Position numbers and translations under genes: made by a program. Positions 5,536-32,771 of a stretch of 64,000 bases of DNA are shown here, piece by piece. The notes below the pieces were generated by a model. It was given only the letters and a program-made list of their open reading frames with translations, was not told where the DNA came from and searched no databases. The DNA is from a virus (taxonomy: Duplodnaviria; Caudoviricetes). How positions within the stretch are numbered: position 1 is the first letter of the stretch; the number at the start of each line of letters is the position of its first letter. The stretch spans positions 5,218-69,217 of IMG/VR virus record IMGVR_UViG_3300033145_002707. One strand, written 5' to 3'.

Positions 5536-6129
5536 TTGAAAAAAATAAAACTCAATAGTGATGCCTCTGACGGGATGGAAGTTGATGATGTCAAAAGGCT
5601 CATAAAGTCAATGGCTTGGGTATGGAAAAGGAAATTGCCTATTGAGTCAGTCACGGACACAGACGATCTTGAGCAGGAAGGCTGGATTGTCTATGTGTCT
5701 TGCAGGCAAAAATATAGGCCAACAAGTGGTGTTAAATTTTCTACATTCTTATGGAGATGCTTGGCGAATAGGTATCAGAATGTAGTCAGATCAGAAAGGA
5801 GGTACAGAGTTAGAGTGTCAACATCTGAAGATGTTGGTCTGTTCAGATTGGATGGTCAAGCAAGCCAAGAAAGGATGACAATTATATCTGAAGCAATTGA
5901 AGTGATTAGGGAAGTTTGTCCTGAGTTAGCTGATATGATTTCGGATAGAGTGCCTGACGAGCTGTTGGCTATAGCGAGAAATAGGAAACGAAGGAATAGA
6001 ACAAAAAGAGGATTCAAATCAATAGGTGGTAATTTGACTTTTGACAAGTGGTTGCTGGAGAATTATTTTGGAGTTGAACTCGGTGAAAATTCAGCAATGA
6101 GGCGGTCGGTTTATGATATTATTGACTGA
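5536..6129 (+). CDS. Sigma-70-family RNA polymerase sigma factor-like protein
   Basis: Region-2 pattern DDLEQEGW...KYRP..GVKFSTFLWRCLANR. Confidence 0.7.
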   Translation: MKKIKLNSDASDGMEVDDVKRLIKSMAWVWKRKLPIESVTDTDDLEQEGWIVYVSCRQKYRPTSGVKFSTFLWRCLANRYQNVVRSERRYRVRVSTSEDVGLFRLDGQASQERMTIISEAIEVIREVCPELADMISDRVPDELLAIARNRKRRNRTKRGFKSIGGNLTFDKWLLENYFGVELGENSAMRRSVYDIID

Positions 6130-6171: not shown

Positions 6172-6918
6172 TTGAAAATGGTTATCAAAACTGATAGAAA
6201 ACAATTGGAGTTCTTTGCAAATGACTTGAGCATTGAGGTTGACCCAAAAGATAAGGATGAAAGTCTTTATGATGAAGTCATAAAAGCACTGGATGTTTTG
6301 ACAGATGATGAATGGGATGCTTTGAATGAAAAGACCCAGGAGTGGTCAAATGAACTTAACCAAGCCAGACTTGCTGCCAGGAAAGGGAGCAAAACTGAAA
6401 AACCTGAGAAGGAAGAGGAATCTGAAACTAAGTCTGAAAAGGCATCTAAGGAGGCACAAGAGGTTCCTGAGAAGGCCAAAAATAAGGATAAAGGTAAAGC
6501 CAATGGCAAAGAAAAATTTGCCAAAAAAGATGCTGCTAAGGAGCCAACCAAAAAAGAGTTGGATGCAGCAAAAGCCAAGGCAAAAGAAAAGGCTAAAACA
6601 GTCTTTTCAGAATCAAAAAAACAAACAACAAATGACAAGCCTTATAATGATGGCACAACAGCTTGGCATGTTTGGATGACTGTTGTTGATGCTGGCAAGA
6701 AAGGTATTACAGCTGAAGCTGCTCTACCTGAATTTGAAAAGAGGATTAAGGCTGCTGGACTTGAAACCAGCAATGCAAAGAGCAGGGTGAATACGATTTT
6801 GCGTCAGTGTGTTGACCCAAAAGGCCTGGTAGATGTGAAAGATGGTGTTTACACATCAACAAAAAAGAGTGCTGAAGCCATCAAGCAGGCTTCTAAAACC
6901 AAGAAGGAAAAGGAATAG
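6172..6918 (+). CDS. Lys/Glu-rich hypothetical protein, possibly DNA-binding
   Basis: Low-complexity K/E/A linker between two small folded regions. Confidence 0.7.
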   Translation: MKMVIKTDRKQLEFFANDLSIEVDPKDKDESLYDEVIKALDVLTDDEWDALNEKTQEWSNELNQARLAARKGSKTEKPEKEEESETKSEKASKEAQEVPEKAKNKDKGKANGKEKFAKKDAAKEPTKKELDAAKAKAKEKAKTVFSESKKQTTNDKPYNDGTTAWHVWMTVVDAGKKGITAEAALPEFEKRIKAAGLETSNAKSRVNTILRQCVDPKGLVDVKDGVYTSTKKSAEAIKQASKTKKEKE

Positions 6919-6923: not shown

Positions 6924-6965
6924 TGCCCAGTCACTACTGATAACCAGTGGTGACTGGGCTTTTTT
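6924..6965 (+). terminator. Rho-independent terminator
   Basis: GCCCAGTCACTACTG-ATAAC-CAGTGGTGACTGGGC followed by TTTTTT. Confidence 0.85.
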
Positions 6966-6990: not shown

Positions 6991-7932
6991 ATGAAAATTG
7001 TCATCATAGGTGCTGGTATATCTGGTGCTATAGCAGCAGGAGCATTGTCAAGTTATAACCCCAAAATCTTTGATGCAGCCAAGAAAAAAGTCCAAAATCA
7101 TAGAGCTGTTATGAGGCTAAGAGATAGTTCAGTTTGTATGTATCTTGGAGTTGGATACAGAAAAGTCAAAGTCCACAAGGCTATTTCTTTTGAAGGCAAG
7201 CTAAAATCAGCACCAAATATAAAAATGAATAATCTTTATTCTATGAAGACAAATGGCACTCTTAGTGATAGGTCTATAAGTAACCTTGGTTCTGCTGACA
7301 GGTTTATCATGACTCAACCTTATTCCATAAAAGATGTAGCTTATGATAAATGGCTTGTTGGTGTATCAAAAAATGCATTGTCATTTGCAGATGGCACAAC
7401 AGAAACATTCGATGCCTGTATAAGCACAATCCCTATGCCCATTATGCTTATTGCTGCTGGCATTGGAGATGCATCAGACTTGTTTGAGTATAAAAATATT
7501 TTCGTGTATAGAGGAAAATTGAATATCAAATCAAGCATAAATCAAACACTATACTTCCCGTCAGATGCATTCCATATATACAGAGCAACTATCCAAAGCC
7601 AAGACATAATCATAGAATCTGTATCAGAGATAAATCCAGAAGAGATAGCTGGAGCCATGAAATGCTTTGGAATCAAGCCACCTCATTACGACATCAGTGT
7701 TGCCAAAGTGTACAAACAAGAGATGGGCAAAATGCTGCCTATCAACGAGCACAGAAGAAAATGGTCAATAATTACCCTTACAGATACGTTCAATATATAT
7801 TCTTTTGGAAGGTTTGCCATATGGAAACCAATAAGGACAGACCATCTCGTGAGTGATATTGAGAACATAAAGGCAATGATAACAGATGACAGCAAATATT
7901 TTGCGCACAAAATTGCTATAAATAAGCCATAA
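6991..7932 (+). CDS. FAD-dependent oxidoreductase (Glf/UDP-galactopyranose mutase-like fold)
   Basis: IIGAGISG dinucleotide motif, DACISTIPMP, SFGRFAIWK; GGAG RBS before ATG 6991. Confidence 0.75.
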   Translation: MKIVIIGAGISGAIAAGALSSYNPKIFDAAKKKVQNHRAVMRLRDSSVCMYLGVGYRKVKVHKAISFEGKLKSAPNIKMNNLYSMKTNGTLSDRSISNLGSADRFIMTQPYSIKDVAYDKWLVGVSKNALSFADGTTETFDACISTIPMPIMLIAAGIGDASDLFEYKNIFVYRGKLNIKSSINQTLYFPSDAFHIYRATIQSQDIIIESVSEINPEEIAGAMKCFGIKPPHYDISVAKVYKQEMGKMLPINEHRRKWSIITLTDTFNIYSFGRFAIWKPIRTDHLVSDIENIKAMITDDSKYFAHKIAINKP

Positions 7933-7940
7933 AGGAGAAA

Positions 7941-8714
7941 ATGATGGATGTAAAATTAATTGAATACACCAAAAATGCTGAACGGCTGCTGGTATTCAGC
8001 AAAAGAACCAGGCATATGAAAAGTGTTGATTCATATGACGAAGTGCTTGAGATGGATGATGAGGAAATTCAAGGCAATTTGAATTATGTTTTTAATACAA
8101 TACAATCAAGTTGGGAATTTGTTGACTATGTTTTTCTAATTTGTGATGTTACAAGAGCATTCACACACCAGCTTGTTAGGCACAGGGTGGGCACAGCATT
8201 TGCTCAGCAAGCCCAAAGGGTGGCAACTCAGGAAGGATTTGGCTATCTTGCAACTGGAACTTGTATTGAGAATGAAACGTATCACAATACAATGAAAGAT
8301 ATACAAAATGGCTATGACAAGTTGATAAATGAGGATGAATGTCGGCCTCAAGATGCTCGTGGAGTCTTGCCTACCAATGTATATACCAATATTCTTTTCA
8401 AAGTCAATCTCAGAGCTTTGAGTGATATGCTTTGTACAAGGCTATGTGTCAGGGCTCAAGGCGAATTTCAGCTGGTTGCTCGTGAAATGCAGAAGCTGGT
8501 TGTCAAGGTTCATCCATTTACTGCTCCAATTCTTGGTCCGAATTGTATGAGATATGGTGTTTGTAAATTCCCGAGGTTTGCAGATTGCCCAATCAAGAAA
8601 AAATTTCCTTTTCTCAATGGTATCAATGACCGTATGAGGGATGAAATAAAAGACTTTTGGACTAAAACAGTAGGTTTTGATCCTCAGCCAACAGCCCATT
8701 CATGGGAAAAATAA
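7941..8714 (+). CDS. thyX: Flavin-dependent thymidylate synthase ThyX-like protein (divergent motif)
   Basis: VTRAFTHQLVRHR...FAQQAQR, QDARGVLP, R.C.RAQGE. Confidence 0.85.
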   Translation: MMDVKLIEYTKNAERLLVFSKRTRHMKSVDSYDEVLEMDDEEIQGNLNYVFNTIQSSWEFVDYVFLICDVTRAFTHQLVRHRVGTAFAQQAQRVATQEGFGYLATGTCIENETYHNTMKDIQNGYDKLINEDECRPQDARGVLPTNVYTNILFKVNLRALSDMLCTRLCVRAQGEFQLVAREMQKLVVKVHPFTAPILGPNCMRYGVCKFPRFADCPIKKKFPFLNGINDRMRDEIKDFWTKTVGFDPQPTAHSWEK

Positions 8715-8743
8715 TATTCATTTGAAATAAAGGAGAACTGAAA

Positions 8744-9598
8744 ATGACAGACAAATACAAAACAGTTGCCATTGATGCAGATGGTACAATATTGAATTAT
8801 GACGGATGGAAAGGTGTGGGGAATTTTGGGGAGCCATTGCCGGGAGCCAGAGAGGCAATCAAAGAACTTAAACAAAGTGGATATAGTATTATCATATTCA
8901 CCACAAGAGGTTCTGATTCAGATGATCTAAGGCGCTGGCTTATAAAATACGACATACCATTTGATGGACTGAATCAAAATCTGCCAACAGCTCCTAAAAA
9001 CATATCTGATAAAAAGGTTATAGCTACTGTTTATATAGATGATAGAGCAATACCATTTGAGGGTAGCTGGAAAGGCATGGTTGAGAAAGTCAAAGCATTC
9101 AAACCTTGGTATCAGAAGGTGAATATGAGACCATCTCTTAACATAAAAGTTGCTGGATACTATGTTGACCAAGTGTCTTTGTATGTTCAAAATATTCATA
9201 ATTCAATCGATGCTTATTCCAAACTTGGCCACCCAAATTGGATTCAGGATGAAGTCCGTGCCTATGAATGGCTGACCAACAAAGAATTTATAGTGTCTTT
9301 GGCTTTTAATTATACAGTAATGCCTTGTGAGTTTGAACTTCTTCAGATAAAAGCGGGTAGCACAGTTCAAATACCAGAAGTCCTCTGCTACAATTCTGAA
9401 TTTGACGCTGGCCTCAGCCATTTTGGATTTCATGTAGATGACTTGGATGAGGCAATTGAAGCATTTAGAAAAAAGAGCTATTTGGTGCTTTCAGATGTTG
9501 AGACACTTAATCATTCAGGTTGTCCAGACACATACAAGTACACATTTATAGACACTTCAGTGCTTGGTTTTATTAGCAAGCTAATCATAAAAGCTTAA
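8744..9598 (+). CDS. HAD-family phosphatase fused to a glyoxalase/VOC domain
   Basis: IDADGT, IFTTR and YIDDRA HAD motifs; C-terminal SHFGFHVDDLDEA VOC motif. Confidence 0.8.
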   Translation: MTDKYKTVAIDADGTILNYDGWKGVGNFGEPLPGAREAIKELKQSGYSIIIFTTRGSDSDDLRRWLIKYDIPFDGLNQNLPTAPKNISDKKVIATVYIDDRAIPFEGSWKGMVEKVKAFKPWYQKVNMRPSLNIKVAGYYVDQVSLYVQNIHNSIDAYSKLGHPNWIQDEVRAYEWLTNKEFIVSLAFNYTVMPCEFELLQIKAGSTVQIPEVLCYNSEFDAGLSHFGFHVDDLDEAIEAFRKKSYLVLSDVETLNHSGCPDTYKYTFIDTSVLGFISKLIIKA

Positions 9599-9638
9599 TA
9601 GCACTGTATATAGACAGAATATAAAGGAGAATAAACCC

Positions 9639-10361
9639 ATGAGGAACTTTGTAATAACAGGCTCAGCAAGTGGTTTGGGCAAAGAAATTTACAGACTGAT
9701 AAATCAGACAGAAGGCATGAAAGCCTTTGGTGTAGACAAAGATAAGGGGATCAATACTGATATTAATATTGATATCAGAGAACTCTGGGCAACATCTGGT
9801 GCGATAGCAAGCCGTTTTGATGGATTTCACGAGATATATGGCTTGATAAATTGTGCTGGCGTCAATTACATTAATAACATGGAGGATATACCAGAAGAGC
9901 AATGGTACAGAGTTATGGATACCAATGCCAAAGGAATTTGGCTGATGGCCAAAGGACTTATGCCTTTGCTTGAAAAATCAAAAGGTGTTATTCTTAATAT
10001 TGTAAGCAACGCTGCTCATATACCCATGACTCACAGTATTGCATACAATGCATCCAAGGCTGCTGCTTTGATGATGACAAAGCAGATGAGCAGAGAATTA
10101 ACAAAGAGCAAGGGCATCACTGTTTTCTCAATCAGTCCGAACAAGTTGAAGGGAACAGGTATGTCAACTTATATTGAAAAGACTGTTCTTGAGCTTAGGC
10201 CAGACCTGACTGCTGACCAAGCCAAGCAATATCAGCTGAATGCTTTGCCAGCAGGGTTTGAGACTGATCCTAAACATATAGCTGAACTTATTGTTTGGTT
10301 ACTTGAAAAACCTCATCGCCATAAATACTTGACTGGTTGTGATTTGCAACTTGGAGCATAA
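9639..10361 (+). CDS. Short-chain dehydrogenase/reductase
   Basis: TGSASGLG, NCAG, YNASK. Confidence 0.9.
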   Translation: MRNFVITGSASGLGKEIYRLINQTEGMKAFGVDKDKGINTDINIDIRELWATSGAIASRFDGFHEIYGLINCAGVNYINNMEDIPEEQWYRVMDTNAKGIWLMAKGLMPLLEKSKGVILNIVSNAAHIPMTHSIAYNASKAAALMMTKQMSRELTKSKGITVFSISPNKLKGTGMSTYIEKTVLELRPDLTADQAKQYQLNALPAGFETDPKHIAELIVWLLEKPHRHKYLTGCDLQLGA

Positions 10362-10363
10362 CT

Positions 10364-10642
10364 ATGGCCAACAACAAACCGGATTATTGTATCTATTGTC
10401 TATTAGATGGTTGTGCAAGTGGTGCTTGTGCTATAGACGAGTTAGAGTGTGATCACCTTGATACACATTATGAAAACTGGCCAGATGGTGGAGCAATTGA
10501 GGTGTGTGAAGATTGTGGCATGTCAAGGCATCATTGGGAATTCGGTGAATCTGATTGGATTATGGTTCCAAATATACCAAGAGTTAGAGAAAACATGCAA
10601 AAATCAATTGATAGGATAATCAAAAATGTCAAACCAAAATAA
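10364..10642 (+). CDS. Small Cys-rich hypothetical protein
   Basis: CxxC pairs. Confidence 0.6.
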   Translation: MANNKPDYCIYCLLDGCASGACAIDELECDHLDTHYENWPDGGAIEVCEDCGMSRHHWEFGESDWIMVPNIPRVRENMQKSIDRIIKNVKPK

Positions 10643-10994
10643 AAAAGCACTTGATGAAAGGATTAAAATCAAGAAAATAGCCAAAGAGTCAACAAAAATC
10701 ATGATGATCAAAAACGAAGAACGTGGAAATTGCTCAGGTGATATTGGATTGTTTGGTTGTTTCCTTGAGGTTAGAACTATGTACCTACGCCTACGTAGTC
10801 TCGTATGGGACAAAGGGCCACCAAACTCATTGATATTACCAATTCGAACAAAGAAGTATAACAAATGGAAAGCAGACGTGAAGAATGCTCTTGAAGACCT
10901 CAGAAATTATACCATATTGGCTGAGATTGCTCTTGAAGACAATAATATCAAAGGCGACGGAGACGACTCAGCACTTGAGAGGAAGCAAATATGA
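10626..10994 (+). CDS. DUF1599/Nmad1-like nucleotide-modification-associated protein
   Basis: YLRLRSL...ALEDLRNYTIL pattern. Confidence 0.6.
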   Translation: MSNQNKKALDERIKIKKIAKESTKIMMIKNEERGNCSGDIGLFGCFLEVRTMYLRLRSLVWDKGPPNSLILPIRTKKYNKWKADVKNALEDLRNYTILAEIALEDNNIKGDGDDSALERKQI

Positions 10995-11962
10995 ACGAAA
11001 GAGAAACAAAAATAATCAGGTATGTTGATTCAATCAAGAATGGTTGGAGAAAATTTCCACCATCTTTGCATATAGAGCTTACAGACCATTGCTTTAACAA
11101 ATGCATAATGTGTGGCCACTGGAAAAGAACATTCAAAACATCTATTGATGGGAAAGTGCTTATTGGTTTCCTTAAAAAAGGCAAACAGCTTGGCCTTGAA
11201 AGCATTTGTTTGTCTGGTGGTGACCCTATGATTAATCAAGATCTCAATAAAATAATGGAATGGTGTTTTAACAATGAAATAGATTTTGGTATTGTTACGG
11301 CTGGATTTGTACCAAACAATATAGACTTTTCTTTTTTAAGAAAAGCCAAATGGGTTCGTGTAAGCCTTGATGCTCTTGGCAATGCAGCTTATAAGAAATG
11401 TCGTGGTGGCAGTATATCTTTTGACGAAGTGCACAAGTCAGTGCAAGACATGAATTCATATGGTGTTAATGTACAGTTTGGAATAACAATACATAAGCAC
11501 AATGTAGATGATCTTGAAGCAATATACCTATACGCAAGTAAACATGGTAGCAGAACCGACTCAAGGCTGGTGTATGATCATGCAGGCAATCTATCCATAG
11601 ACAACGACCAGATAGATGGTGTTATAAGGTTATCCCAAAAATATATGGCCAACTTTGATCATTATTCTCCGACACATATAGAGACATGCTACGCTTGCCT
11701 TTATCAACTTTTTATAAGGGCTGATGGTGAAATATTCCCTTGCTGTATCATGGCTGGAGACACTGAGGAAAAATCAAAAGCAGAAGTTAGCTTTGGTTCA
11801 ATATATAGCAATGCTTGGGGAGACATACACAGCTGGGCAAACCACTTTGCTGACCACAGGTCTGATGCAATTAAAGCAATATGTGATGAGTCTTGTATAA
11901 TGAGGCTTGACACAATCAATGGTACGGTTCATAGTAAAACAAACGAAAGGAACTTCTTTTGA
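10991..11962 (+). CDS. Radical SAM protein with SPASM/twitch-like domain
   Basis: CFNKCIMC, SGGDP, C-terminal CYAC...GEIFPCC. Confidence 0.9.
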   Translation: MNERETKIIRYVDSIKNGWRKFPPSLHIELTDHCFNKCIMCGHWKRTFKTSIDGKVLIGFLKKGKQLGLESICLSGGDPMINQDLNKIMEWCFNNEIDFGIVTAGFVPNNIDFSFLRKAKWVRVSLDALGNAAYKKCRGGSISFDEVHKSVQDMNSYGVNVQFGITIHKHNVDDLEAIYLYASKHGSRTDSRLVYDHAGNLSIDNDQIDGVIRLSQKYMANFDHYSPTHIETCYACLYQLFIRADGEIFPCCIMAGDTEEKSKAEVSFGSIYSNAWGDIHSWANHFADHRSDAIKAICDESCIMRLDTINGTVHSKTNERNFF

Positions 11963-12984
11963 AAAGAAAAATCAACGACAAAGAATTGAAAAGGGCATTA
12001 GAGCATGTATTTGGCAAGGTATCATATATCACACATGATGATGATGGAACTGTTGAGCTGGATATAGATGAGAATCATGTCTTGCAATCTGTAGCTGATC
12101 TTCCTGTTGATGGCAATGGTGTTTATATCCAGCATAATAATGCCTTGGAGCTATCAAGCCTTGATGGCTTTGACAGAACAAATGAAATGATGCAAATGAA
12201 GAATGCAAGGAGCTTTTTTCATGTGTTTAGAGTCTGGCATGGGTTAAAGTTCTTGACTGAATATACCAAGGAACATTCAGTTGTTGCTGACTTAGGTGCT
12301 GGCTATTGTGAGATGCCACACCTGTGTCAAGCAGCAATCAAAAAATATAATTACTACTGCCTCGAATTTGACTACAAAAAGCTGAATACAGTGTCTCACA
12401 GAAAGATAGGCAAATTCAACAGGGTGCTTGTTAGGTCTGACTTGACAAGAGGTGAGTTGCCATTTGGTAACGAAGAAGTTGATGCAATAATCTGCTTTGA
12501 GTTCATAGAGCACATAGCAAAAGATTCATTCCTTAACTTGCTGATCGATATGAATAGAGTGCTGAAGATGGGTGGGTGTATGGCCTTGTCAACACCAAAT
12601 ATAGAAGTAGGAAGGACACCAGCCGTTGATCACTTGTATGAATATACATATAGAGAGTTCTGTAACATACTGCTGGCAGCAGGATTTGAGGTGATAGAAT
12701 CATTTGGCATAGGTGTTGGCAAAAGGTCAGATTTGGCTGAGGCTAAAAAGACTCATTTCTATAAAGTCATGGATTCATTCTTTCCTATGACACTTGTGAA
12801 TCAATTAGCATTCATAGAACATCCTGACAAGTGCAGGAGTTTTTCTGTGTTTGTTAGAAAAACTACTGACCCTGATGCAAATGCCATGTCGTTAGTCGAT
12901 CTTAGCAAATCAATGGCACTAAATGTCGAAAGAGAATCAATGGTCAGCAAGAAACACAAAGCAGGAAGGGTCAGATACAAATGA
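11959..12984 (+). CDS. Class I SAM-dependent methyltransferase
   Basis: VADLGAGY, DAIICFEFIEH, RVLKMGG...STPN. Confidence 0.85.
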   Translation: MKRKINDKELKRALEHVFGKVSYITHDDDGTVELDIDENHVLQSVADLPVDGNGVYIQHNNALELSSLDGFDRTNEMMQMKNARSFFHVFRVWHGLKFLTEYTKEHSVVADLGAGYCEMPHLCQAAIKKYNYYCLEFDYKKLNTVSHRKIGKFNRVLVRSDLTRGELPFGNEEVDAIICFEFIEHIAKDSFLNLLIDMNRVLKMGGCMALSTPNIEVGRTPAVDHLYEYTYREFCNILLAAGFEVIESFGIGVGKRSDLAEAKKTHFYKVMDSFFPMTLVNQLAFIEHPDKCRSFSVFVRKTTDPDANAMSLVDLSKSMALNVERESMVSKKHKAGRVRYK

Positions 12985-15473
12985 TGTTTACACACCTGCA
13001 TGTACATGATCAATATTCATTCCTTGATGGATATGGTTCAGCCAAGCAATATTGTGAAAGGGCTAAAGAGTTAGGCATGAAAGCCATAGCCCTAACCAAT
13101 CATGGCAATATAGATGGAGCCATAAAATGGCAAATTGCTTGCAAAGAGGTTGGTATCAAGTCTATACTTGGAGTTGAAGCATATATTGTTCCAGACCTTA
13201 TGGTAAAAGAAAAGGGCGAGAAAAGAGGCCACATCACTTTGCTGGCCAAGAATGAAAAGGGCTGGGAAAACATATCAAAGATGCTAACCTATGCAAATAT
13301 TGATGGGTTCTACTATAAGCCAAGAATAGACCCAGAGTTGCTATTGGATCATTTGGATGGTGTGCTTGTTATGAGTGCCTGTTATGCATCCTTTATATAC
13401 ATGGATGGTGGAATCGATTTGCTTGAAGAACTTATAGCCAAAAGGGTTGATATAGCACTGGAAATAATGCCTCACGATATAGAAGGACAAAGTGAGCATA
13501 ATAAATTAATAGTTGCCTTAGCTGATAAATATGAACTCCCTTTGGTTGCAACCAATGATTGCCACTATGTTACAGCTGAGCAAGCAGATGAACAGGAAGT
13601 CTTGCTTGCTATGCAATCCAAGAAGAAGTGGAAAGATGAGAACAGGTGGAGATTTGACACCCAAACTCTTTTCTTGACGTCTGCTGAAGAAATGAAAGGA
13701 CTTTTCAAAAAGCAGAAAGCATTGCCAGCCAAAGTTGTGAATGAAGCCATAGCCAATACCAATATGATAGCAGACAAATGTAACCTTTTTATAGAGAAAA
13801 AAGACGTTTTGCTGCCAAAGCCAGATGTGCCAGGATATGAAGACATCGATGAAAATGGCCAGCTGATTCAACTAACCTTGGATGGTTTTGAAGAAAGGAT
13901 GAAGAAGCACGATTGGATAGACAAGAATAACAGGCAAGAATATCTTGACAGAATATCTGAAGAACTGGAAATCATTATTGCTCAGGGGTTTGCAAGATAT
14001 TTTTTGATAGTCTGGGAATTAATCAATTGGTGTAAAAATCCAGATGATGGTGGAGAGCCAGTGATGGTTGGTCCTGGTCGTGGTTCTGTAGGTGGTAGCA
14101 TTGTTGCCTTTTGCTTGCACATCATACAAGTTGACGCAATTAAACTGAACCTTGTATTTTCAAGGTTTATATCAGAGGGCAGAATTGATTTGCCAGATAT
14201 TGATATGGACTTTGAAGATATAAAAAGAGATAGGATATTGGAACATCTCAAGAAAACATATGGAAAGCATAATGTAGCAGGGTTGTCAACCTTTGCTAAG
14301 ATGCATGGCAGAGGTGCTTTGAGAGATGTAGCAAGAGTATTTGATGTGCCTTTGGCTGAGGTTGATAAGGCAGCTAAATCCATAGTCGTAAGATGTTTGG
14401 ATAAAGACACAAAAGTGTGGACAAACAAAGGGCCAATAGCAATTAAATTATTAGATAAAAACACTAACAGCACCAAAGTAACAGCAGCATACGGAAGTAG
14501 GAGGATAACAAAGAACATTAAAGCTATTCACAAAACTGATAGATTTGTCAATATGTATGAAATAGTGTTAGAGTCAGGAAAAAAAATAAAGTGCTCAATA
14601 GATCATTATTTTTGGACAAGGAATGTCAGGTCTGGCAAGATTGGTTGGAAAACACTGAAAAACACAGATCAAAGAACAGATACGATTCTGGCTGCTGAAT
14701 TCGATGAAGTTTATTCATTTTGTAAACAATGTGGCAAGCTGGTGTATCAGCACAGAACAGTTAAGACTCACAAAAGAATTTTTTGTTCTTTGTCATGTAC
14801 AACAACATGGAGAAACATCCACAACAATCCATTGGATGATCCAAAAGCATTGAAGAAAATGAAAGAATCAAGAAAAGGCGTAAGATGTAAATGGTTTGAT
14901 GATGAAAAGGTGGTTGCAAGAGTTTTGGCTGGCAGGCGTAAACGCATGCTTGAGAATAATCCTATGAAGAGGCCAGAAGTTAGAGCAAAAGCAAGCAAAA
15001 AATTAAAAAAAATAATGAAGGTTGTAAACAACAATCCTGCCAAGAAAGAAGCACAAAGGCAATACATGCTAAAAAGACTTGCTGACAACCCTGAATCTCA
15101 TCCATTAAGGCTTTTGGCCAAAAATCCAAGAAAAGGAGTGTCTGTTATAAGCAAGCCACAAAGTGAATTGTCTATATTGGTCAAAAAAGTCTTTGTTGGC
15201 TACAGTGTAGAGGACGAATATCCTATACAAAGAGTGATAAATGGCAAATTCAAAAAGATTGGGCATTATTATTTAGACATTGCTATACCTGAACTTATGT
15301 TGAACATAGAATATGATGGTGGATTGCATCTTTTAAACAAAAATATTAATGGTGATAAGGAAAGGGATAAATTCCTTACGAACCAAGGATGGAAAACAAT
15401 AAGATTTAATAAGAGCAACATAAAAAAAGCAAAGAAGGATTTAGATGAAATTCGAAAAAATTATATCAATTAA
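12981..15473 (+). CDS. dnaE: DNA polymerase III alpha, N-part (PHP domain and palm) + N-intein + endonuclease
   Basis: HLHVHDQYSFLDG, GPGRGSVGGS, PDIDMDF; intein begins at C472 (14394). Confidence 0.9.
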   Translation: MMFTHLHVHDQYSFLDGYGSAKQYCERAKELGMKAIALTNHGNIDGAIKWQIACKEVGIKSILGVEAYIVPDLMVKEKGEKRGHITLLAKNEKGWENISKMLTYANIDGFYYKPRIDPELLLDHLDGVLVMSACYASFIYMDGGIDLLEELIAKRVDIALEIMPHDIEGQSEHNKLIVALADKYELPLVATNDCHYVTAEQADEQEVLLAMQSKKKWKDENRWRFDTQTLFLTSAEEMKGLFKKQKALPAKVVNEAIANTNMIADKCNLFIEKKDVLLPKPDVPGYEDIDENGQLIQLTLDGFEERMKKHDWIDKNNRQEYLDRISEELEIIIAQGFARYFLIVWELINWCKNPDDGGEPVMVGPGRGSVGGSIVAFCLHIIQVDAIKLNLVFSRFISEGRIDLPDIDMDFEDIKRDRILEHLKKTYGKHNVAGLSTFAKMHGRGALRDVARVFDVPLAEVDKAAKSIVVRCLDKDTKVWTNKGPIAIKLLDKNTNSTKVTAAYGSRRITKNIKAIHKTDRFVNMYEIVLESGKKIKCSIDHYFWTRNVRSGKIGWKTLKNTDQRTDTILAAEFDEVYSFCKQCGKLVYQHRTVKTHKRIFCSLSCTTTWRNIHNNPLDDPKALKKMKESRKGVRCKWFDDEKVVARVLAGRRKRMLENNPMKRPEVRAKASKKLKKIMKVVNNNPAKKEAQRQYMLKRLADNPESHPLRLLAKNPRKGVSVISKPQSELSILVKKVFVGYSVEDEYPIQRVINGKFKKIGHYYLDIAIPELMLNIEYDGGLHLLNKNINGDKERDKFLTNQGWKTIRFNKSNIKKAKKDLDEIRKNYIN

Positions 15474-15558
15474 ACCTGTTGGCAAAAGAAAAGCATATGA
15501 TGTAGAGCTTGATCATAGGCACAAAGGATATTTTGCAAACGGATTTCAAACTCATAAC
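14394..15558 (+). mobile_element. Intein in dnaE with DUF559/Vsr-like homing endonuclease, encoded across two reading frames
   Basis: CLDKDTKV (block A), CSIDHYFW (block B), CKQC..CSLSC, LDIA...NIEYDGGLH; C-part MKFEKIISI...YDV...YFANGFQTHN followed by Ser. Confidence 0.85.
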
Positions 15559-17928
15559 TCAGGTGGGGATGTTAGAGCTGACTTTTCAATAGCTGATGCC
15601 TTTGATGCATTTGAAGATGGCAAAACTTTTAAAAGAAAATATCCAAAGGTCAGCAGAATTGCAATATCTATGGAAGGGCAACTGAAATCTGCAGGTCGTC
15701 ATGCTTGTGCTATGGTTGTTGCTGCTTCTGATTTAAGGTCTGGTGAAAATGCCAGTTTAGCCATAAGGAAGAAGGTGGTAGTTGGAAATTGGGATAAAGA
15801 AGATGCTGAGTATATGGGCTTGATGAAACTTGATGTCCTTGGCCTCAATGCCTTAACAGTATTAAATGAGTGTAAAAAATTAATCAAAAAAAGACATAAA
15901 GTAGAATTAGACTATGATACATTGGATATTGATGATCCAAAAATATATAAAGAGTTCAACGAAGGACATGGTGTAGGAGTTTTTCAATTTGCCAGCCATG
16001 GCATGATGAAGCTGTGTAGAGAGGTTGGAGTTGAAGACTTTGAGGAACTCATAGCACTCAATGCTTTGCATAGGCCAGGAACACTCAGAAGTGGACTGAC
16101 ACACAAGTACCATATGAGAAAACATGGCATAGAAAAGGTCTCATATATCCACCCTTTGATTAAGGACATCACTGAAAGAACACAAGGCATTATACTATAT
16201 CAGGAACAAGTCATGGCAATCATGTATTGGGTTGGTGGGTTGCCATGGAAGACAACAGATATGATTAGGAAGGTTGTCAGCAAAAGCAAGGGTGAGGAGC
16301 AATTCCTAAAATTTAAGAAGATGTTTATTCAAGGGTGCCTTGACAGGAAGACAGTTTCAGCTGAAGATGGAGAAAAAATATTTAGTGAGCTGCAATATTT
16401 TGGTAGTTATGGCTTCAACCGTGCCCATGCTGCTGAGTATGCAACAATAGCTGCTTGGGAAATGTGGCTTAAAGTCCATTATCCTACCGAATACATGGTA
16501 ACAATATTGACCTACGGCTCAGATGATAAAAAGGCTGAGCATATACAAGAAGCGAGAAGGCTTGGCCTCAAACTACTTCTACCAGATATCAACAAGTCTG
16601 GTGCAACAGAATGGATACCTGATGATAATGGCAATCTACTCATACCAATAAAAGAGATTAAAGGTGTTGGAGAGGTAGCAGCCAATGAGATAATCCTGAA
16701 AAGAAAACCAGCCAGATTTAGAGCTGGCGTAAAAATTGAAAATCTTGGTGGGCCATACAAAGATGTTGAGGACATGGAAACCAGAGCCATCAAGAGAAAA
16801 GTAAATTCACGTGTTGTCAAGTTGCTTGAAAAAACACATTGCTTTGGAGACAGTGATGAAAAATTAAAAATTGGAGAGATTGAACTGGATGAATTATCTA
16901 AGTGTTTCAACTTTAGCCTTTCCAACGACCCCATGTACAGATACAGGAAGATGATAGAACTGATCAAAACTCAAATCAAGCTTGAACCATTGAGTGCATT
17001 GGATTTCAGCAGAGAAAAATATAGATATCATTTTGGTAGAATGTCTATACTCAAGTTTGGATATAAAGAAGACAAGAATGTAAAAATGAAAGATGTTCGA
17101 GGAACTGCTGGTGATTTGGGTGGTGTATATGGTAATTATGAAGATGATACGGACTTTTCCATGATAGTTTTTGGACGAGAATTTTACAAAGCTAACAAAT
17201 ATGCTATAGAGCATTGCCAAGACAAATGGTTATTGGTTAAGGCCAAATCAATGAGGAGCAACAACATACACACGAGTGAACTTTGGTTTGGGGAAGACCT
17301 TATGGCAGGGAAGGCTGATGGTCTTGGACTTGAGCTTGTCAAGACACCAGAATATACTAAATCATATGATGATGATATGAAAAGATTGCTTGATTGTAAA
17401 GATTGTGAACTAAGAAATGAATGTACAAAACCAGTGTTACCAAGCAAAGGACAGATGAATGTTATGCTTTTTGGGGAAGCCCCTGGGAAAAATGAGGATA
17501 AATATGGTAGAGGTTTTTATGAGAGTGCTAAATCTGGAAAGCTAATGTGGAAAGAGTTTGACAAATATGGTCTTGAGAGGTCAATGTTTCACATAACAAA
17601 TATAGTGAAATGCTATCCATCTGAAACAAGAACACCTAAGAGAAAACACATAAAGATATGCAAACAATGGATTGATAAAGAAATAGCTACAATTAAACCA
17701 GCTATAATTCTGGCTTTTGGGAATACTGCTGTCAAATTTTTTACAGATGATGACAAAGGAATCTTTGGTTTAAGTGGTACCACTGTATGGGATGATAACT
17801 ATAATTGCTACATCTGTTGGTGTGCACACCCTGCTTCAGCTGTATATCAACATGAAAACAAAATCTATTTTGACAAAGGGGTAGAGAACTTTGCCAGAAC
17901 GTTGAACAGTGTTGGCCTTGGTGGCTAA
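15445..17928 (+). CDS. dnaE: C-intein + DNA polymerase III alpha C-part + family-4 uracil-DNA glycosylase-like domain
   Basis: GRHACA, KLDVLGL, YQEQVM, YGFNRAHA; UDG from about 17395 (CKDCELR, GEAPG, TNIVKC, HPA). Confidence 0.9.
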   Translation: MKFEKIISIKPVGKRKAYDVELDHRHKGYFANGFQTHNSGGDVRADFSIADAFDAFEDGKTFKRKYPKVSRIAISMEGQLKSAGRHACAMVVAASDLRSGENASLAIRKKVVVGNWDKEDAEYMGLMKLDVLGLNALTVLNECKKLIKKRHKVELDYDTLDIDDPKIYKEFNEGHGVGVFQFASHGMMKLCREVGVEDFEELIALNALHRPGTLRSGLTHKYHMRKHGIEKVSYIHPLIKDITERTQGIILYQEQVMAIMYWVGGLPWKTTDMIRKVVSKSKGEEQFLKFKKMFIQGCLDRKTVSAEDGEKIFSELQYFGSYGFNRAHAAEYATIAAWEMWLKVHYPTEYMVTILTYGSDDKKAEHIQEARRLGLKLLLPDINKSGATEWIPDDNGNLLIPIKEIKGVGEVAANEIILKRKPARFRAGVKIENLGGPYKDVEDMETRAIKRKVNSRVVKLLEKTHCFGDSDEKLKIGEIELDELSKCFNFSLSNDPMYRYRKMIELIKTQIKLEPLSALDFSREKYRYHFGRMSILKFGYKEDKNVKMKDVRGTAGDLGGVYGNYEDDTDFSMIVFGREFYKANKYAIEHCQDKWLLVKAKSMRSNNIHTSELWFGEDLMAGKADGLGLELVKTPEYTKSYDDDMKRLLDCKDCELRNECTKPVLPSKGQMNVMLFGEAPGKNEDKYGRGFYESAKSGKLMWKEFDKYGLERSMFHITNIVKCYPSETRTPKRKHIKICKQWIDKEIATIKPAIILAFGNTAVKFFTDDDKGIFGLSGTTVWDDNYNCYICWCAHPASAVYQHENKIYFDKGVENFARTLNSVGLGG

Positions 17929-25910: not shown

Positions 25911-26003
25911 TATCTTGGCCTTTATGCTTAACAGTTACTATTCCTTGGTGGATTTTTAAATCAATATTTATTCCACAAAAATATTTTGATTAAAGGAGAC
26001 AAA

Positions 26004-26747
26004 ATGAAAACAGTTGCAATCATACAAGCACGTATGGGTAGCACGAGACTTCCTGGCAAAGTGCTGATGGACATTTGTGGCAAGCCAGCCATAGAGAGGC
26101 TTGTTGACAGGGTAGCCAAGGCTAAACATATTGATCAAATAGTAGTTGCAACTGGTGATACACTTAGCAATGAACCATTAAAAAGATGGGGCCGTGAAAA
26201 CAGCACTCCTGTATTTGTTGGCTCAGAAAATGATGTGCTTGGTCGTGTACTTGAGTGTGCTGAGTTTTATAGAGCTGATAGAATAGTTGATATCACTGGG
26301 GATTGTCCATTAATAGATCACAAGCACATAGACCATCTTTGTAACACAATGGATGAATTTCATCATGTTGATTATTCATCAAACATAATGCCAAGGACAT
26401 GGCCAGACGGATTTGACGTTCAAGTATATAAAATGATCATGCTCAGAATTGCTAATGAAGAATTAAAAACAGACAGCCCATTGAGAGAACATGTTGGTAT
26501 CAACATACATAAGCTAAACCCAAAAATATATAACCAATTATCGCCTGGTAGCAAATACTGTCACCCAGAATGGGGGTTGACTCTTGACACAACTGAAGAC
26601 TTGACACTCATAAGGAAAATATTTGCTCATTTCGTTTATAACAAAAATTACGATTTCTCAGCAATAGATGTTATCGACTACATAAGAGATAACATCAATC
26701 TGCTCAACATCAACAGCCATATAAAGAGAAAAGGAATAACAAGTTGA
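26004..26747 (+). CDS. SpsF/PseF-like acylneuraminate cytidylyltransferase
   Basis: IIQARMGSTRLPGKVL, GSENDVLGR, DCPLID, LTLDTTED. Confidence 0.9.
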   Translation: MKTVAIIQARMGSTRLPGKVLMDICGKPAIERLVDRVAKAKHIDQIVVATGDTLSNEPLKRWGRENSTPVFVGSENDVLGRVLECAEFYRADRIVDITGDCPLIDHKHIDHLCNTMDEFHHVDYSSNIMPRTWPDGFDVQVYKMIMLRIANEELKTDSPLREHVGINIHKLNPKIYNQLSPGSKYCHPEWGLTLDTTEDLTLIRKIFAHFVYNKNYDFSAIDVIDYIRDNINLLNINSHIKRKGITS

Positions 26748-26895
26748 TTTTAAGAATATCAACCTTATTGCTGTCTGTTATATTTTTATCTTGCACATGG
26801 AACATGTCAGCAATCAATGTCATGATGATCATGGTATCAACTATGGTGTTTTATCATTTGGAATTGAAATTCCATTTTGAATAAAGGAAAAGAAA

Positions 26896-27108
26896 ATGAA
26901 AAGAATTAAAGCTGTTGGGCAAGAATTGCTGAGCCAACTCAAAAGCAAAACAATATTGACAAGAAAACCAAGCCTAACACTTTGTTCAAACCACAAGAAA
27001 ACAGTGATTGGTGGTGGCAGAATTTGGAATCCATTAACAATGGGGCAAGCATTCAGAGATGGGAAAGGATGGTATATAGGCCATGGAAATAAAAAAGCTG
27101 TTACATGA
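26896..27108 (+). CDS. Hypothetical protein
   Basis: AAGGA RBS, 70 aa. Confidence 0.45.
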   Translation: MKRIKAVGQELLSQLKSKTILTRKPSLTLCSNHKKTVIGGGRIWNPLTMGQAFRDGKGWYIGHGNKKAVT

Positions 27109-27227
27109 AAGGCTTGAGGAAAGGCTTGACTATCTCAAAAGACCAAACCAACATCACATTGAATTGCATACATCAAATTCTGGCTAAGGAAAAATAACAG
27201 AAAGAAGGCTTGAAAAAAGGAGCATTT

Positions 27228-27800
27228 ATGATAAAAGGATATTCAATTATTTTTGGCAAAGGCATTTCTTACGCTGGAAAATTTGTAGCAGGAACTTGGT
27301 TTGATGATAATTCTTTATATGAGATATCACCAACTGACAAAAAAGGTTTTGGTTTTAAGGTTGATCTTGCTATAGGGAAAATGATCAGACCCATTTCTTA
27401 TTTTTGGAAGCTTGGTTTCTGGAAAAAAGATAAACGAATGATAAAGGATATCCTTGCTCGTGGGGAAGGCTATGCGATGAGATTCTTTGGTGAAAAATTA
27501 TACAGTAAGATAATTTTATTGCCACCATACCACTGGGATAAAAGAACAATATGGAATCCATGGTATGCTCTTCATTGGTTTGTTTTAAGAATACCAACTT
27601 TTATATGGCCATATATCTCTATAAGTACTCCATGGATCAATGTATATGCAGGCTGTCGCAGGTTTAAAGTTGACCCATTTACTCGTGACCGAACATGGTG
27701 TGGTCATAAAGAAAGGAAATTGGCAGAACAGGAAGAGCCAGCTGATCGCTTTCATGCCCTGTCATTTTCTATTTCAATTCGTACCAGCAGATTGGCTTAA
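27228..27800 (+). CDS. Aromatic-rich hypothetical protein
   Basis: AGGAG RBS before ATG 27228. Confidence 0.6.
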   Translation: MIKGYSIIFGKGISYAGKFVAGTWFDDNSLYEISPTDKKGFGFKVDLAIGKMIRPISYFWKLGFWKKDKRMIKDILARGEGYAMRFFGEKLYSKIILLPPYHWDKRTIWNPWYALHWFVLRIPTFIWPYISISTPWINVYAGCRRFKVDPFTRDRTWCGHKERKLAEQEEPADRFHALSFSISIRTSRLA

Positions 27801-27823
27801 TATTTGTAAGCAAGGAGGCACAA

Positions 27824-28816
27824 ATGAAAACAATGTGTATCATAGGAGCAGGTTCAATTGGTGCCACCAAAGACAAACAATTTGATAGCAAGAAAACAAA
27901 AACAATTTTTACACAAGCCCATGCAGCATGGAAGCATCCAGAGATAAGTTTAGTCGGCATATGTGATACAGACCTAAAGAAGTCAATAGATGCTGGCAAT
28001 AAATGGGATTGCATCTCATATAGAAATTACAGAACTATGTTGGATGAACTCAACCCAGAAATAGTTTCAGTTTGCACACCAACAGAAACACATCACAAAA
28101 TTATGCGGGATTTGCTTAATGGTTATTGTAGCAATGCTGTAAATAAAAGTCCAAAACTTGTTATTTGCGAAAAGCCATTCTGTTCAACAATTGAAGAAAC
28201 AAAGGATATTTCTGAATTGTATAAGGTTCTTGATGTTCCAATTCTCATAGACTATATAAGGAGATTTGACAAATCAATTATAAGGCTGAAAAACAAAATT
28301 AAAAATAAAAAAATATATTCTTTCAGATTATCATATGGGCGTGGGCTCAAAAGAGATGGGTGCCATGGTATTGACATATGCAATTACTTGTTTGGTAAAT
28401 GTGAATCAATAAATTTAAAAAGCAGAATATCAGACCTATTCTATGACGGAGAAGATGATGACCCTTCTGTCCAGATATATGGCAGATGGGAAAAATGTAA
28501 GCAAGTAATATTTACACCGATTGATAGTAGAGATTATTCCATTTTTGAAATTGATATATTCACTGAAGATGGACGATACATGCTTGTCAATAGTGGTTTG
28601 CAAGGAGTAACATTCGTCAAAGATATGTCTCCATATGGTCATTATCAAGCCTTATCACCAGTCCCAAAGTATGAGGAAACTGGTTTAAATATAGCTCTAC
28701 TAAGGCTTATGGATAATGCCGTAAACTATCTCAATGGCTTTGAACCATTGCTGTGCACCAATACAGATGCCATTGAGGTTCATAGATTAATCAAATGTAT
28801 TAAGGAGGAATCATGA
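27824..28816 (+). CDS. Gfo/Idh/MocA family oxidoreductase
   Basis: IIGAGSIG, VCTPTETH, ICEKP, GCHGID. Confidence 0.9.
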   Translation: MKTMCIIGAGSIGATKDKQFDSKKTKTIFTQAHAAWKHPEISLVGICDTDLKKSIDAGNKWDCISYRNYRTMLDELNPEIVSVCTPTETHHKIMRDLLNGYCSNAVNKSPKLVICEKPFCSTIEETKDISELYKVLDVPILIDYIRRFDKSIIRLKNKIKNKKIYSFRLSYGRGLKRDGCHGIDICNYLFGKCESINLKSRISDLFYDGEDDDPSVQIYGRWEKCKQVIFTPIDSRDYSIFEIDIFTEDGRYMLVNSGLQGVTFVKDMSPYGHYQALSPVPKYEETGLNIALLRLMDNAVNYLNGFEPLLCTNTDAIEVHRLIKCIKEES

Positions 28817-30196: not shown

Positions 30197-30351
30197 AACT
30201 TGAGGTGGGCCATCTGTCAAATAAAAAGATTCTTGTCTTGCTCAGCCTCCGTAGCCAAGAAAAGAGCAAGCCAGCAAGGGACTGGAACACTGGACTTTTC
30301 ACCCAGCTGATTCAAGAATGAGCAACCACCTCAATCTTTAAAGGAGCAAAT

Positions 30352-32763: not shown

Positions 32764-32771
32764 GAGAAACA

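Follow-up and report, generated by a model that had tools for sequence, protein, structure and literature searches.

A phage flavoprotein–ThyX cassette upstream of a DnaE-type polymerase and its possible link to hypermodified thymine

The canonical route of thymidine hypermodification starts with a ThyA-type dUMP hydroxymethylase, a 5-hmdU DNA kinase and an aGPT-Pplase, whose product is then tailored by PLP, radical SAM, FAD or acetyltransferase enzymes (Lee et al., 2018, 2021). In Bacillus phage SP-15, the DNA contains 5-(4,5-dihydroxypentyl)uracil, a base that, going by titles in the references of the SP-15 paper, takes up label from ribose and is synthesised at the level of the nucleoside triphosphate; its candidate biosynthetic genes are those for a Thy1-family protein (gp130) and, in translational coupling with it, an SDR (gene 129). 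Furthermore, in DNA of the Pbunavirus phages F8 and 14-1, about one T in four is replaced, in TG context, by sugar-like hypermodified thymidine of 362 and 390 Da. These nucleosides were interpreted as derivatives of a tetrose sugar-alcohol and of a cyclic pentose, and no gene was assigned to their synthesis (Yee et al., 2025, bioRxiv 10.1101/2025.03.31.646159). By mass arithmetic, adding two oxygens to the SP-15 nucleoside (330) gives that of F8 (362). Wifcevirus phages show considerable restriction resistance in K-12, and no report on the DNA chemistry of Wifcevirus or Myosmarvirus was found in the literature searched. These systems are compared here with a gene block at positions 6991–12984 of a 64,000-nucleotide stretch of phage DNA (the window).

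Genes of the block

The block is single and compact, with all genes on the plus strand and separated by gaps of no more than 40 nt or overlapping by 4–17 nt (Table 1). The contiguous operon of the original prediction was thus recovered, every listed gene lying where it had been placed, and so was its position directly upstream of a UDG-fused DnaE: the block leads into a DnaE that is split by an intein and ends in a C-terminal UDG domain. The DnaE ortholog in the closest relative, locus L085, is unsplit. A strong terminator-like hairpin in front of the block appears, from its sequence, to end the upstream transcription unit, and the cassette unit would begin 3′ of it. Because homologs begin with MKIVIIGAG, and because the hairpin lies inside the g1 ORF as called from 6919, the true start of g1 is placed at 6991 and the 5′ extension is judged spurious.

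Table 1. Features of the gene block and of the adjoining polymerase genes
Feature	Coordinates	Strand	Description	Evidence or remark
Hairpin	6925..6959	+	Intrinsic-terminator-like	15-bp stem, 9 GC pairs, T-run
g1	6991..7932	+	FAD-binding flavoprotein (GxGxxG), UDP-galactopyranose-mutase-like fold, 313 aa	phrog_4828 4.5e-57
g2	7941..8714	+	Divergent ThyX-family flavin-dependent thymidylate-synthase homolog	PF02511 1e-34
g3	8744..9598	+	Capless HAD phosphatase (BT0820-like) fused to VOC/glyoxalase-fold domain	
g4	9639..10361	+	Classical short-chain dehydrogenase/reductase (FabG-like)	9e-30; TGxxxGxG and YxxxK present
g5	10364..10642	+	Cys-rich ORF, 92 aa	Missing from the gene list of the original prediction
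g6	10626..10994	+	Helical protein, Nmad1/DUF1599 superfamily, 122 aa	Family-profile link
g7	10991..11962	+	Radical SAM enzyme with C-terminal SPASM domain	Radical_SAM 9.8e-14, SPASM 2.3e-6, CX3CX2C present
g8	11959..12984	+	Class I SAM-dependent methyltransferase, small-molecule type (Methyltransf_11/23/25), 341 aa	
DnaE, N-terminal part	12981..15473	+	PHP and NTPase domains, then intein-like segment and DUF559 endonuclease	
DnaE, C-terminal part	15445..17928	+	Fingers, HhH and fused C-terminal UDG-superfamily domain	PF03167 5e-24

The g1 protein matches no Pfam family. Its AF2 model (pLDDT 89) is nearest to UDP-galactopyranose mutase (UGM) by Foldseek (E 1e-14), with Z 23.4, rmsd 3.1, 297/313 residues aligned and 20% identity against UGM (VIA), while protoporphyrinogen oxidase is the runner-up structural family (Z 19.7); the model therefore bears out the proposed Glf-like FAD enzyme. 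The predicted protein shares with UGM the fold and the FAD-binding motif, but it falls short of the matched UGMs by 150–190 residues and is partnered in the genome by ThyX rather than by glycan genes.

The ThyX motif of g2 reads RHR-VGTAFAQQ-A-QR, and the dUMP-binding arginines are retained. Phe takes the place of the conserved His in the S-x-L-E-H segment, and in the g2 clade residues conserved in canonical ThyX at the folate/flavin site are replaced; a Ser-to-Ala change is not diagnostic, since it varies inside the closest subclade. Divergence, as originally claimed, is thus evident at the folate/flavin site, but the thymidylate-synthase model TIGR02170 is still passed (91.5 bits, equivalog cut-off 87.9), and plain dTMP synthesis would still fit.

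In g3, the HAD part covers residues 1–128 with DxDxT (phrog_1238 3.9e-25, PDB 2obb 7e-7), and the VOC part covers residues 142–250 (PF13669 6.6e-6, slightly below the family cut-off); Serratia phage WR01 encodes the two domains in separate genes, the window phage in a single fused one. The g4 SDR resembles pteridine reductases only generically, among about 200 SDR models. The Cys-rich g5 has no detectable homologs and is also absent from L085. The g6 protein itself has no direct Pfam match, but its family profile retrieves 91 proteins, and 24 of the 79 members scanned against Pfam match DUF1599/Nmad1 (best 9.7e-13), so that the suggested Nmad1/DUF1599-like protein is supported through its family. 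An Nmad1-like domain is also found in two fusions, with a member of the g2 ThyX clade in P0088 and with an NT5C deoxynucleotidase in P0071. In five loci (the window, L085, L086, L006 and L008), g6 lies upstream of a radical SAM gene, with a GT2 gene in between in the case of L085. Nearest solved relatives of the g7 radical SAM enzyme, at weak similarity, are MoaA, acting on GTP, and viperin, acting on CTP. The g8 methyltransferase is not conserved in relatives and is absent even from L085. New here are the Nmad1–radical SAM pair, the methyltransferase, and the HAD-VOC, Nmad1–ThyX and Nmad1–nucleotidase fusions.

Neither a ThyA-type gene (PF00303) nor a TET/JBP gene (PF12851) was found in the whole 69-kb record, nor in Banzai, F8, 14-1 and WR01, so that the known 5-hmU routes are undetectable in these genomes. 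Likewise, no kinase or aGPT-Pplase of canonical thymidine hypermodification was recognised in the window phage. Elsewhere in the window, positions 25986–38264 hold a full nonulosonic-acid (NulO-type) sugar pathway including a Maf-like transferase.

The cassette across phages

The block is an expanded form of a phage-only enzyme cassette travelling with a DnaE-type polymerase. The flavoprotein–ThyX pair upstream of DnaE is also found in Pbunavirus, Wifcevirus, Myosmarvirus and a 40-kb Vibrio podophage. In 77 of 80 IMG/VR loci, ThyX directly follows the flavoprotein on the same strand (the remaining three are truncated), and DnaE lies downstream in 58 of the 80. Indeed, the co-occurrence analysis proposed with the original prediction found flavoprotein and ThyX together in all records of Pseudomonas (292/292), Escherichia (27/27), Serratia (9/9) and Xanthomonas (6/6) phages. 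As the cassette is co-inherited with the replication module, common ancestry largely accounts for its association with DnaE. Polymerase, ThyX and flavoprotein are the only proteins still recognisable by BLAST between the F8 replication region and the window.

The conserved gene order is flavoprotein, ThyX, a variable slot and DnaE. What fills the slot differs among phages: an SDR–VOC pair in about 26 loci, a carbamoyltransferase in 3 loci, GT2 in L085, a sulfotransferase-like gene in the Vibrio phage and, in further cases, methyltransferases, PIG-L and radical SAM enzymes. The same slot also carries clearly unrelated genes such as a denV-like glycosylase, helicase, ligase and SPFH. In one carefully annotated Pbunavirus genome, other annotated enzyme-like genes are few, namely a MazG-like pyrophosphatase and a cysteine dioxygenase-related protein. 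Between F8 and 14-1, the flavoprotein is 97% and ThyX 94% identical although the modifications differ; the divergence sits in the C-terminal half of HAD-DUF6378, gp070, an extra 14-1 methyltransferase and early genes.

Possible function of the cassette

The likeliest role of the cassette, plausible at a probability of roughly 0.45, is to make a hypermodified thymine, i.e., a C5-substituted deoxyuridine with a sugar-derived polyhydroxy side chain. UGM forms a covalent flavin-sugar adduct, and its being the closest fold of g1 counts for this reading; a flavin N5-iminium carrier is used by both parent families, ThyX and UGM. The ThyX homolog and the flavoprotein would jointly supply the C5 carbon chemistry, possibly with such a carrier. 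The capless HAD phosphatase may then strip phosphate from a nucleotide or a sugar-phosphate-derived side chain, and the SDR and the VOC domain may oxidise, reduce or isomerise this chain. Further tailoring in the window phage could come from the radical SAM/SPASM enzyme paired with the Nmad1-like protein and from the methyltransferase, and the UDG domain on DnaE would exclude unmodified uracil from DNA. The gathering of hydroxyl-tailoring enzymes in the ThyX–DnaE slot, the constant pairing of flavoprotein and ThyX, the lack of ThyA-type and TET/JBP genes and the scarcity of other enzyme-like genes in the annotated Pbunavirus also speak for hypermodification, the three kinds of fusion suggest that parts of the cassette are linked, and SP-15, with its dihydroxypentyluracil and Thy1–SDR coupling, is a precedent. 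The sugar- or aldehyde-derived C5 group first proposed is therefore upheld in part: sugar-like thymidine does occur in F8 and 14-1, which have the same core, but TG specificity and the TIGR02170 score tell against it. ThyX is a mononucleotide enzyme, and none of the cassette proteins shows a DNA-binding or base-flipping domain; confinement to TG in Pbunavirus points to a sequence-reading step at the DNA level that a nucleotide-pool enzyme does not explain. Hypermodification is also weakened by the near identity of the F8 and 14-1 flavoproteins and ThyX despite different modifications, by the lack of g5 and g8 in L085, and by the shared descent of cassette and DnaE.

A serious competitor, although a doubtful one, is ordinary nucleotide supply with unrelated passengers. 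ThyX would merely supply replication with dTMP, the HAD protein and the Nmad1-like one would clean up the deoxynucleotide pool or mend DNA ends, the flavoprotein would be an accessory redox or unknown protein, and the SDR, VOC, radical SAM and methyltransferase genes would be morons in a permissive slot, with the modified thymine of the relatives made by other, still unannotated genes. The ThyX score and its retained arginines suit such a role, but the clade has lost residues conserved in canonical ThyX, and the tie between the UGM-fold flavoprotein and ThyX in every assessable locus, even in very distant phages, is left unexplained. Unrelated genes in the slot and the poor conservation of g5 and g8 agree with passengers, whereas the frequent hydroxyl-tailoring transferases among the inserted genes and the HAD-VOC, Nmad1–ThyX and Nmad1–NT5C fusions do not. 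As for Pbunavirus, three quarters of T are canonical in F8 and 14-1, a pool enzyme cannot give TG specificity, and it is in gp070 and early genes, rather than in flavoprotein or ThyX, that the two phages diverge most; however, nucleotide supply gives no source for the C5 chemistry in phages without ThyA and TET/JBP.

It is improbable that the product is a modified nucleotide or cofactor never entering DNA, for example a nucleotide that counters host defences as antimetabolite or signalling decoy, or a pterin- or flavin-type cofactor for the ThyX reaction. The relatives of the radical SAM enzyme that act on nucleotides hint weakly at it, as do the likeness of the SDR to pteridine reductases and the NT5C-type and MazG-like partners, which suggest mononucleotide substrates, but all these similarities are generic, F8 and 14-1 have modified DNA, and the coupling to a replicative polymerase with its UDG fusion suits a DNA end-product better. 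UGM-fold enzymes normally act on nucleotide sugars, and the window holds a NulO-type pathway, yet it is very unlikely that the SDR, VOC, UGM-like and methyltransferase proteins join this pathway in glycan metabolism decorating the virion or host surface, because 13 kb with replication and recombination genes separates the two clusters, the cassette is found in Pbunavirus and Wifcevirus as well as at many further loci, BLAST of the F8 replication region against the window gave only polymerase, ThyX and flavoprotein, and the flavoprotein's neighbours are ThyX and DnaE.

Comparison with known systems

With thymine hypermodification as the preferred reading, the closest chemistry is that of Pbunavirus, measured in the DNA of F8 and 14-1; the window phage is uncultured. 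In F8 and 14-1, a DnaE-type polymerase is likewise preceded by a UGM-fold flavoprotein, a ThyX of the g2 clade and a HAD phosphatase, in unchanged order, and both these phages and the window are without ThyA-type and TET/JBP genes. In contrast, their HAD_PNKP is fused to DUF6378, a separate exonuclease is present, SDR, VOC, radical SAM, Nmad1-like gene and UDG fusion are absent, and their proteins are only 32–40% identical to those of the window. Wifcevirus and Myosmarvirus, for example E. coli phages Bas98-101 and Serratia phage WR01, arrange their genes as flavoprotein, ThyX, HAD, SDR, small ORF, VOC and DnaE: SDR and VOC are common with the window, but HAD and VOC are separate genes, an epsilon-like exonuclease lies 5′ of DnaE, and the Nmad1-like/radical SAM pair and the methyltransferase are missing.

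The canonical hypermodification systems likewise combine a thymidylate-synthase-family enzyme with a variable tailoring set including radical SAM and flavoenzymes, and UDG–polymerase fusions are likewise found with T-modified genomes; however, their synthase is ThyA-type instead of ThyX-type, and their side chains are amino-acid-derived, while those of the window's relatives are sugar-like. SP-15 has a family A polymerase in place of DnaE, and its genes show no BLAST-level similarity to those of the window, but it offers a likeness in both chemistry and gene arrangement: a C5-linked polyhydroxyalkyl chain on uracil, and a Thy1-family protein coupled to an SDR.

The cassette, its boundaries and its neighbors

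The cassette consists of eight genes (g1 to g8) on one strand, separated by gaps of 40 nt or less or overlapping by 4–17 nt. The start at position 6991 in the original prediction is correct: homologs of g1 begin at the Met located there, and a strong terminator-like hairpin, which ends the preceding unit, falls within the 5′-extended part of the g1 ORF. Because no + strand terminator of comparable strength is found between the cassette start and the end of the polymerase genes, the cassette and the split DnaE-type polymerase encoded directly downstream look like a single transcription unit. In the window, an intein-like segment carrying a DUF559 endonuclease breaks DnaE, and an overlapping second ORF continues the polymerase and carries a UDG domain at its end. 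In the closest relative, locus L085 (68–88% amino-acid identity), the orthologous DnaE-UDG is one unbroken ORF of 1258 aa, whose N-terminal part is 88% identical to the window DnaE, and the insertion point is therefore marked.

The gene two places before the cassette encodes a protein of 197 aa that matches Sigma-70 region 2 (2.8e-8). It is conserved in this position ahead of the flavoprotein gene in L003, L006, L007, and L086, and its product may serve the phage as a sigma factor of the middle genes. Directly before g1, a gene encodes a low-complexity protein, rich in Lys and Glu, whose C-terminal domain is small and folded. Pbunavirus gp066, also encoded just upstream of the flavoprotein, is of the same make, and its conserved C-terminal part in phage F8 looks like a winged helix. 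The two proteins show no similarity by BLAST and may be positional analogues. Elsewhere in the window, the phage carries a complete-looking pathway for a nonulosonic-acid sugar of the pseudaminic/legionaminic type. Two of its ORFs may represent a split or interrupted dehydratase gene: the second covers only positions 125–280 of the Polysacc_synt_2 (PseB-like) profile, and the first has no match in a Pfam scan.

Positions of the cassette, its neighbors and features of the compared loci
Feature	Sequence	Position	Strand	Remarks
Sigma-70 region 2 protein	window	5536-6129	+	197 aa
Lys/Glu-rich protein	window	6172-6918	+	just upstream of g1
Terminator-like hairpin	window	6925-6959		ends preceding unit
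Cassette, g1 to g8	window	6991-12984		eight genes
g1, flavoprotein	window	6991-7932		immediately upstream of g2, same strand
g2, ThyX	window	from 7941
DnaE with UDG domain	window	12981-17928		broken by intein-like segment
Nonulosonic-acid cluster	window	25986-38264	+	CMP-sugar cytidylyltransferase; GFO/IDH/MocA oxidoreductase; DegT/PseC aminotransferase; NeuB synthase; PseB-like dehydratase (C-terminal part only); GNAT; BNR/sialidase-like protein; 959-aa Maf-like (MptE-like) transferase with TPR repeats
First ORF of possible split dehydratase	window	31412-31912	+
Second ORF of possible split dehydratase	window	32140-32763	+	PseB-like
gp066	Pbunavirus, L083	12279-13172	-	Lys/Glu-rich
DnaE-UDG	L085	3988-7764		unbroken
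Carbamoyltransferase	L024 and L026 (10900-12612), L082			NodU/CmcH-type, 570-607 aa
Sulfotransferase-like gene	Vibrio phage vB_ValP_VA-RY-3, L087	8369-9124	+	PF13469, 5.8e-7
ORF12.1	phage 14-1, L093	6707-7207	-	annotated methyltransferase

The two flavoenzymes

The g1 product matches phrog_4828 at 4.5e-57 and no family in Pfam or NCBIfam. Its structure as predicted by AlphaFold from 32 homologs (pLDDT 89.3) is nearest to UDP-galactopyranose mutase (UGM; Foldseek E 1e-14). In VIA-align, 297 of 313 residues are aligned with UGM at Z 23.4, rmsd 3.1, and 20% identity, with lower scores for protoporphyrinogen oxidase (Z 19.7) and for the amine oxidases (about 18). The similarity to UGM extends over the FAD and sheet domains, as judged from the predicted structure. 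No longer, fused forms of g1 were found, which is weak evidence.

The g2 product is a ThyX protein by PF02511 (1e-34, 120 bits; cut-off 24.8) and only just clears TIGR02170 (91.5 bits; cut-off 87.9). It belongs to a clade with Phe at the His position of S-x-L-E-H and an R-x-R…SxR motif, and the profile of this clade aligns with Mycobacterium tuberculosis ThyX at 6.5e-22. The arginines of R-x-R and SxR and two later Arg positions are invariant in the clade, which departs from the characterized enzymes in that the His of S-x-L-E-H is replaced by Phe, RHR is mostly RTR, and the Tyr after SxR is replaced by Val. The g2 product does not have the full ThyX signature (RHR-x7-S, conserved His, Tyr): compared with M. 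tuberculosis ThyX, RHR is kept, and a Ser-to-Ala change, a one-residue insertion, a His-to-Phe change, and a Tyr-to-Val change are seen. The carbon-donor site may be altered in the cassette ThyX, because the replaced His is, in ThyX structures, the residue that stacks on folate. The one-residue insertion and the Ala are features of the window subclade. The Ser-to-Ala change was rejected as a sign of altered function since it is variable within this closest subclade, being present in the window, L006, L008, L014, L037, and L051 and absent in L007, L013, L019, and L004.

Putative tailoring genes and the spread of the cassette

The flavoprotein and ThyX match the same cultured phages in equal numbers (292 Pseudomonas, 27 Escherichia, 9 Serratia, and 6 Xanthomonas records). 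With an alignment of the g1 family as query, 80 loci with a g1 homolog were retrieved from IMG/VR, where the single g1 sequence retrieved none. ThyX comes next on the same strand in 77 of them, the remaining three being cut short, and DnaE lies downstream in 58. The gene order is flavoprotein, small ORF, ThyX, HAD, SDR, small ORF, VOC, exonuclease, and DnaE in Serratia phage WR01, and flavoprotein, small ORFs, ThyX, HAD fusion, exonuclease, and DnaE in Pbunaviruses. The same cassette layout, with the same flavoprotein-ThyX core, is found in a 40-kb podophage, Vibrio phage vB_ValP_VA-RY-3. A BLAST comparison of F8 with the window recognizes no proteins other than the polymerase, the flavoprotein, and ThyX.

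The ORFs between the flavoprotein and DnaE form a variable slot, and they were clustered in the 58 loci and their representatives scanned against Pfam. HAD_PNKP is found in 48 of these loci, an RNase_T exonuclease in 49, and an SDR-then-VOC pair in about 26; a 100-aa DUF6378 protein is fused to HAD in Pbunaviruses. Carbamoyltransferase, methyltransferases, a PIG-L-like protein, and a sulfotransferase-like protein are sporadic members, and a denV-like glycosylase, helicase, ligase, and SPFH are unrelated genes in the same slot. The carbamoyltransferase adjoins ThyX in three cassette loci, and the sulfotransferase-like gene of the Vibrio podophage lies between ThyX and the exonuclease/DnaE.

In the window, g3 encodes a capless HAD phosphatase (DxDxT; phrog_1238, 3.9e-25; PDB 2obb, 7e-7) fused to a VOC domain; the HAD part is BT0820-like, not HAD_PNKP, and no DUF6378 domain is found in the cassette. 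The following genes encode a classical SDR (g4), a Cys-rich protein of 92 aa for which no relatives were found (g5), and, after g6, a radical SAM protein with a SPASM domain (g7; CX3CX2C is present and both models score above their cut-offs) and a class I methyltransferase of the small-molecule type (g8). No close relatives of g7 and g8 were found among cultured phages. In L085, the cassette comprises ThyX, HAD-VOC, SDR, g6, a GT2 glycosyltransferase (PF00535, 1.8e-18), radical SAM, and the unsplit DnaE-UDG, and g5 and g8 are missing. The order of g6 followed by radical SAM is also found in L006, L008, L085, and L086.

The earlier assignment of g6 to Nmad1 finds no direct match, either in a Pfam scan of g6 or with PF07659 (DUF1599/Nmad1) on the window's own genome, and is supported through intermediate relatives: a g6 family profile retrieved 91 proteins from 1.8 billion representatives, and 24 of 79 scanned against Pfam match PF07659 (best 9.7e-13). 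An Atlas feature hit for g6 scored 0.93, and its structural neighbors there were uninformative helical matches. The family was not equated with DUF6378, since hhalign gave no significant match (P 0.012–0.025, probability 2–4%). In P0088, a g6-like domain is fused with ThyX of the cassette clade, and in P0071 the partner of such a domain is an NT5C deoxynucleotidase. Together with HAD-VOC, these fusions tie the cassette parts together.

Modified thymine and the routes to it

Among cassette carriers, hypermodified thymidine in virion DNA is known only for F8 and 14-1, in which nucleosides of 362 and 390 Da, read as derivatives of a tetrose sugar alcohol and of a cyclic aldopentose, take the place of about a quarter of T (Yee et al., 2025, bioRxiv 10.1101/2025.03.31.646159). 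In the same study, F8 DNA resists enzymes with TG in their sites, no genes are assigned to the modification, and gene-based prediction misses Pbunavirus. By our own arithmetic, 362 corresponds to thymidine plus C4H8O4, that is, deoxyuridine with C5H11O4 at C5. Wifcevirus phages, which also carry the cassette, are reported to be considerably restriction-resistant, and UDG-polymerase fusions, with family A polymerases, accompany T-modified genomes.

After replication, oxidation specific for NTG can be brought about by phage TET/JBP T-dioxygenases, but the TET/JBP domain that is the feature of this pathway (5mYOX) is absent from the window's genome, Banzai, F8, 14-1, and WR01 (PF12851, E ≤ 10). 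Likewise, canonical 5-hmdU hypermodification has a ThyA-family dUMP hydroxymethylase as its feature, whereas PF00303 has no match in the 69-kb record at E ≤ 1 and is undetectable in Banzai, F8, 14-1, and WR01, and neither 5-hmdU DNA kinase nor aGPT-Pplase is listed in general Pfam scans of the 32 ORFs at 4618–38264. The careful annotation of Banzai names few enzyme-like genes outside the cassette, apart from replication and structural genes: one for a MazG-like pyrophosphatase and one whose product is annotated as cysteine dioxygenase-related.

F8 and 14-1, whose modified nucleosides are 28 Da apart, were used as a natural genetic comparison with nucleotide windows across the genomes. Nine divergent segments were found, and only one of them, the C-terminal half of HAD-DUF6378, is inside the cassette; the flavoprotein shares 97% identity and ThyX 94% although the modifications differ. 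Both results weigh somewhat against the cassette as the source of the modification. Outside it, F8 gp066, which had looked like a domain swap, is the low-complexity protein described above and was rejected as an enzyme candidate, and 14-1 ORF12.1, in a region divergent from F8, has no match in a Pfam scan.

On balance, we give a probability of roughly 0.45 that the cassette makes hypermodified thymine. This reading is favored by the flavoprotein-ThyX pairing, obligate across very distant phages, by the many slot genes that are hydroxyl-tailoring in character, by the fusions, and by the existence of phages that have sugar-like modified T without a known route to 5-hmU. Besides the F8 and 14-1 comparison, it is weakened by the shared descent of the cassette with the polymerase, by a ThyX that clears the equivalog model, and by the TG specificity, which needs a DNA-level reader, none being visible in the cassette. 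A more specific scheme, which we consider unlikely, is a two-flavoenzyme relay: the UGM-fold flavoprotein and the remodelled ThyX would place a sugar-derived carbon chain, instead of a folate-derived methylene, onto C5 of deoxyuridylate via a flavin N5-iminium carrier. This would be a new biosynthetic class of C5-polyhydroxyalkyl uracils (F8 type, possibly SP-15 type), which Nmad1-assisted radical SAM and methyltransferase would tailor here to a so far undescribed base.

Pbunaviruses count among the Pseudomonas phages in widest therapeutic use, and the sugar-like modified thymine in their DNA has been shown only recently. If the cassette is responsible, a hypermodification route would start from a ThyX-type, not a ThyA-type, enzyme with a sugar-mutase-like flavoprotein, and the restriction resistance of several phage genera would be explained. 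Furthermore, the cassette would be a sequence marker for modified DNA, hence for END-type nuclease sensitivity, in hundreds of isolates and metagenomic phages. The extended cassette of the window, with radical SAM, Nmad1-like protein, and methyltransferase, and with a glycosyltransferase in the closest relative, suggests further, undescribed base variants.

Among known systems, phage SP-15 is kept as an analogy and set aside as a homolog, because BLAST finds no similarity of its gp129 and gp130 to SDR and ThyX of the window. For its modified base, titles in the reference list of the sequencing paper refer to ribose label and to synthesis as the triphosphate. In SP-15, a gene of the Thy1 family is coupled to one for an SDR, and, by our own arithmetic, the F8 nucleoside (362) has two oxygens more than the dihydroxypentyl-uracil nucleoside of SP-15 (330).
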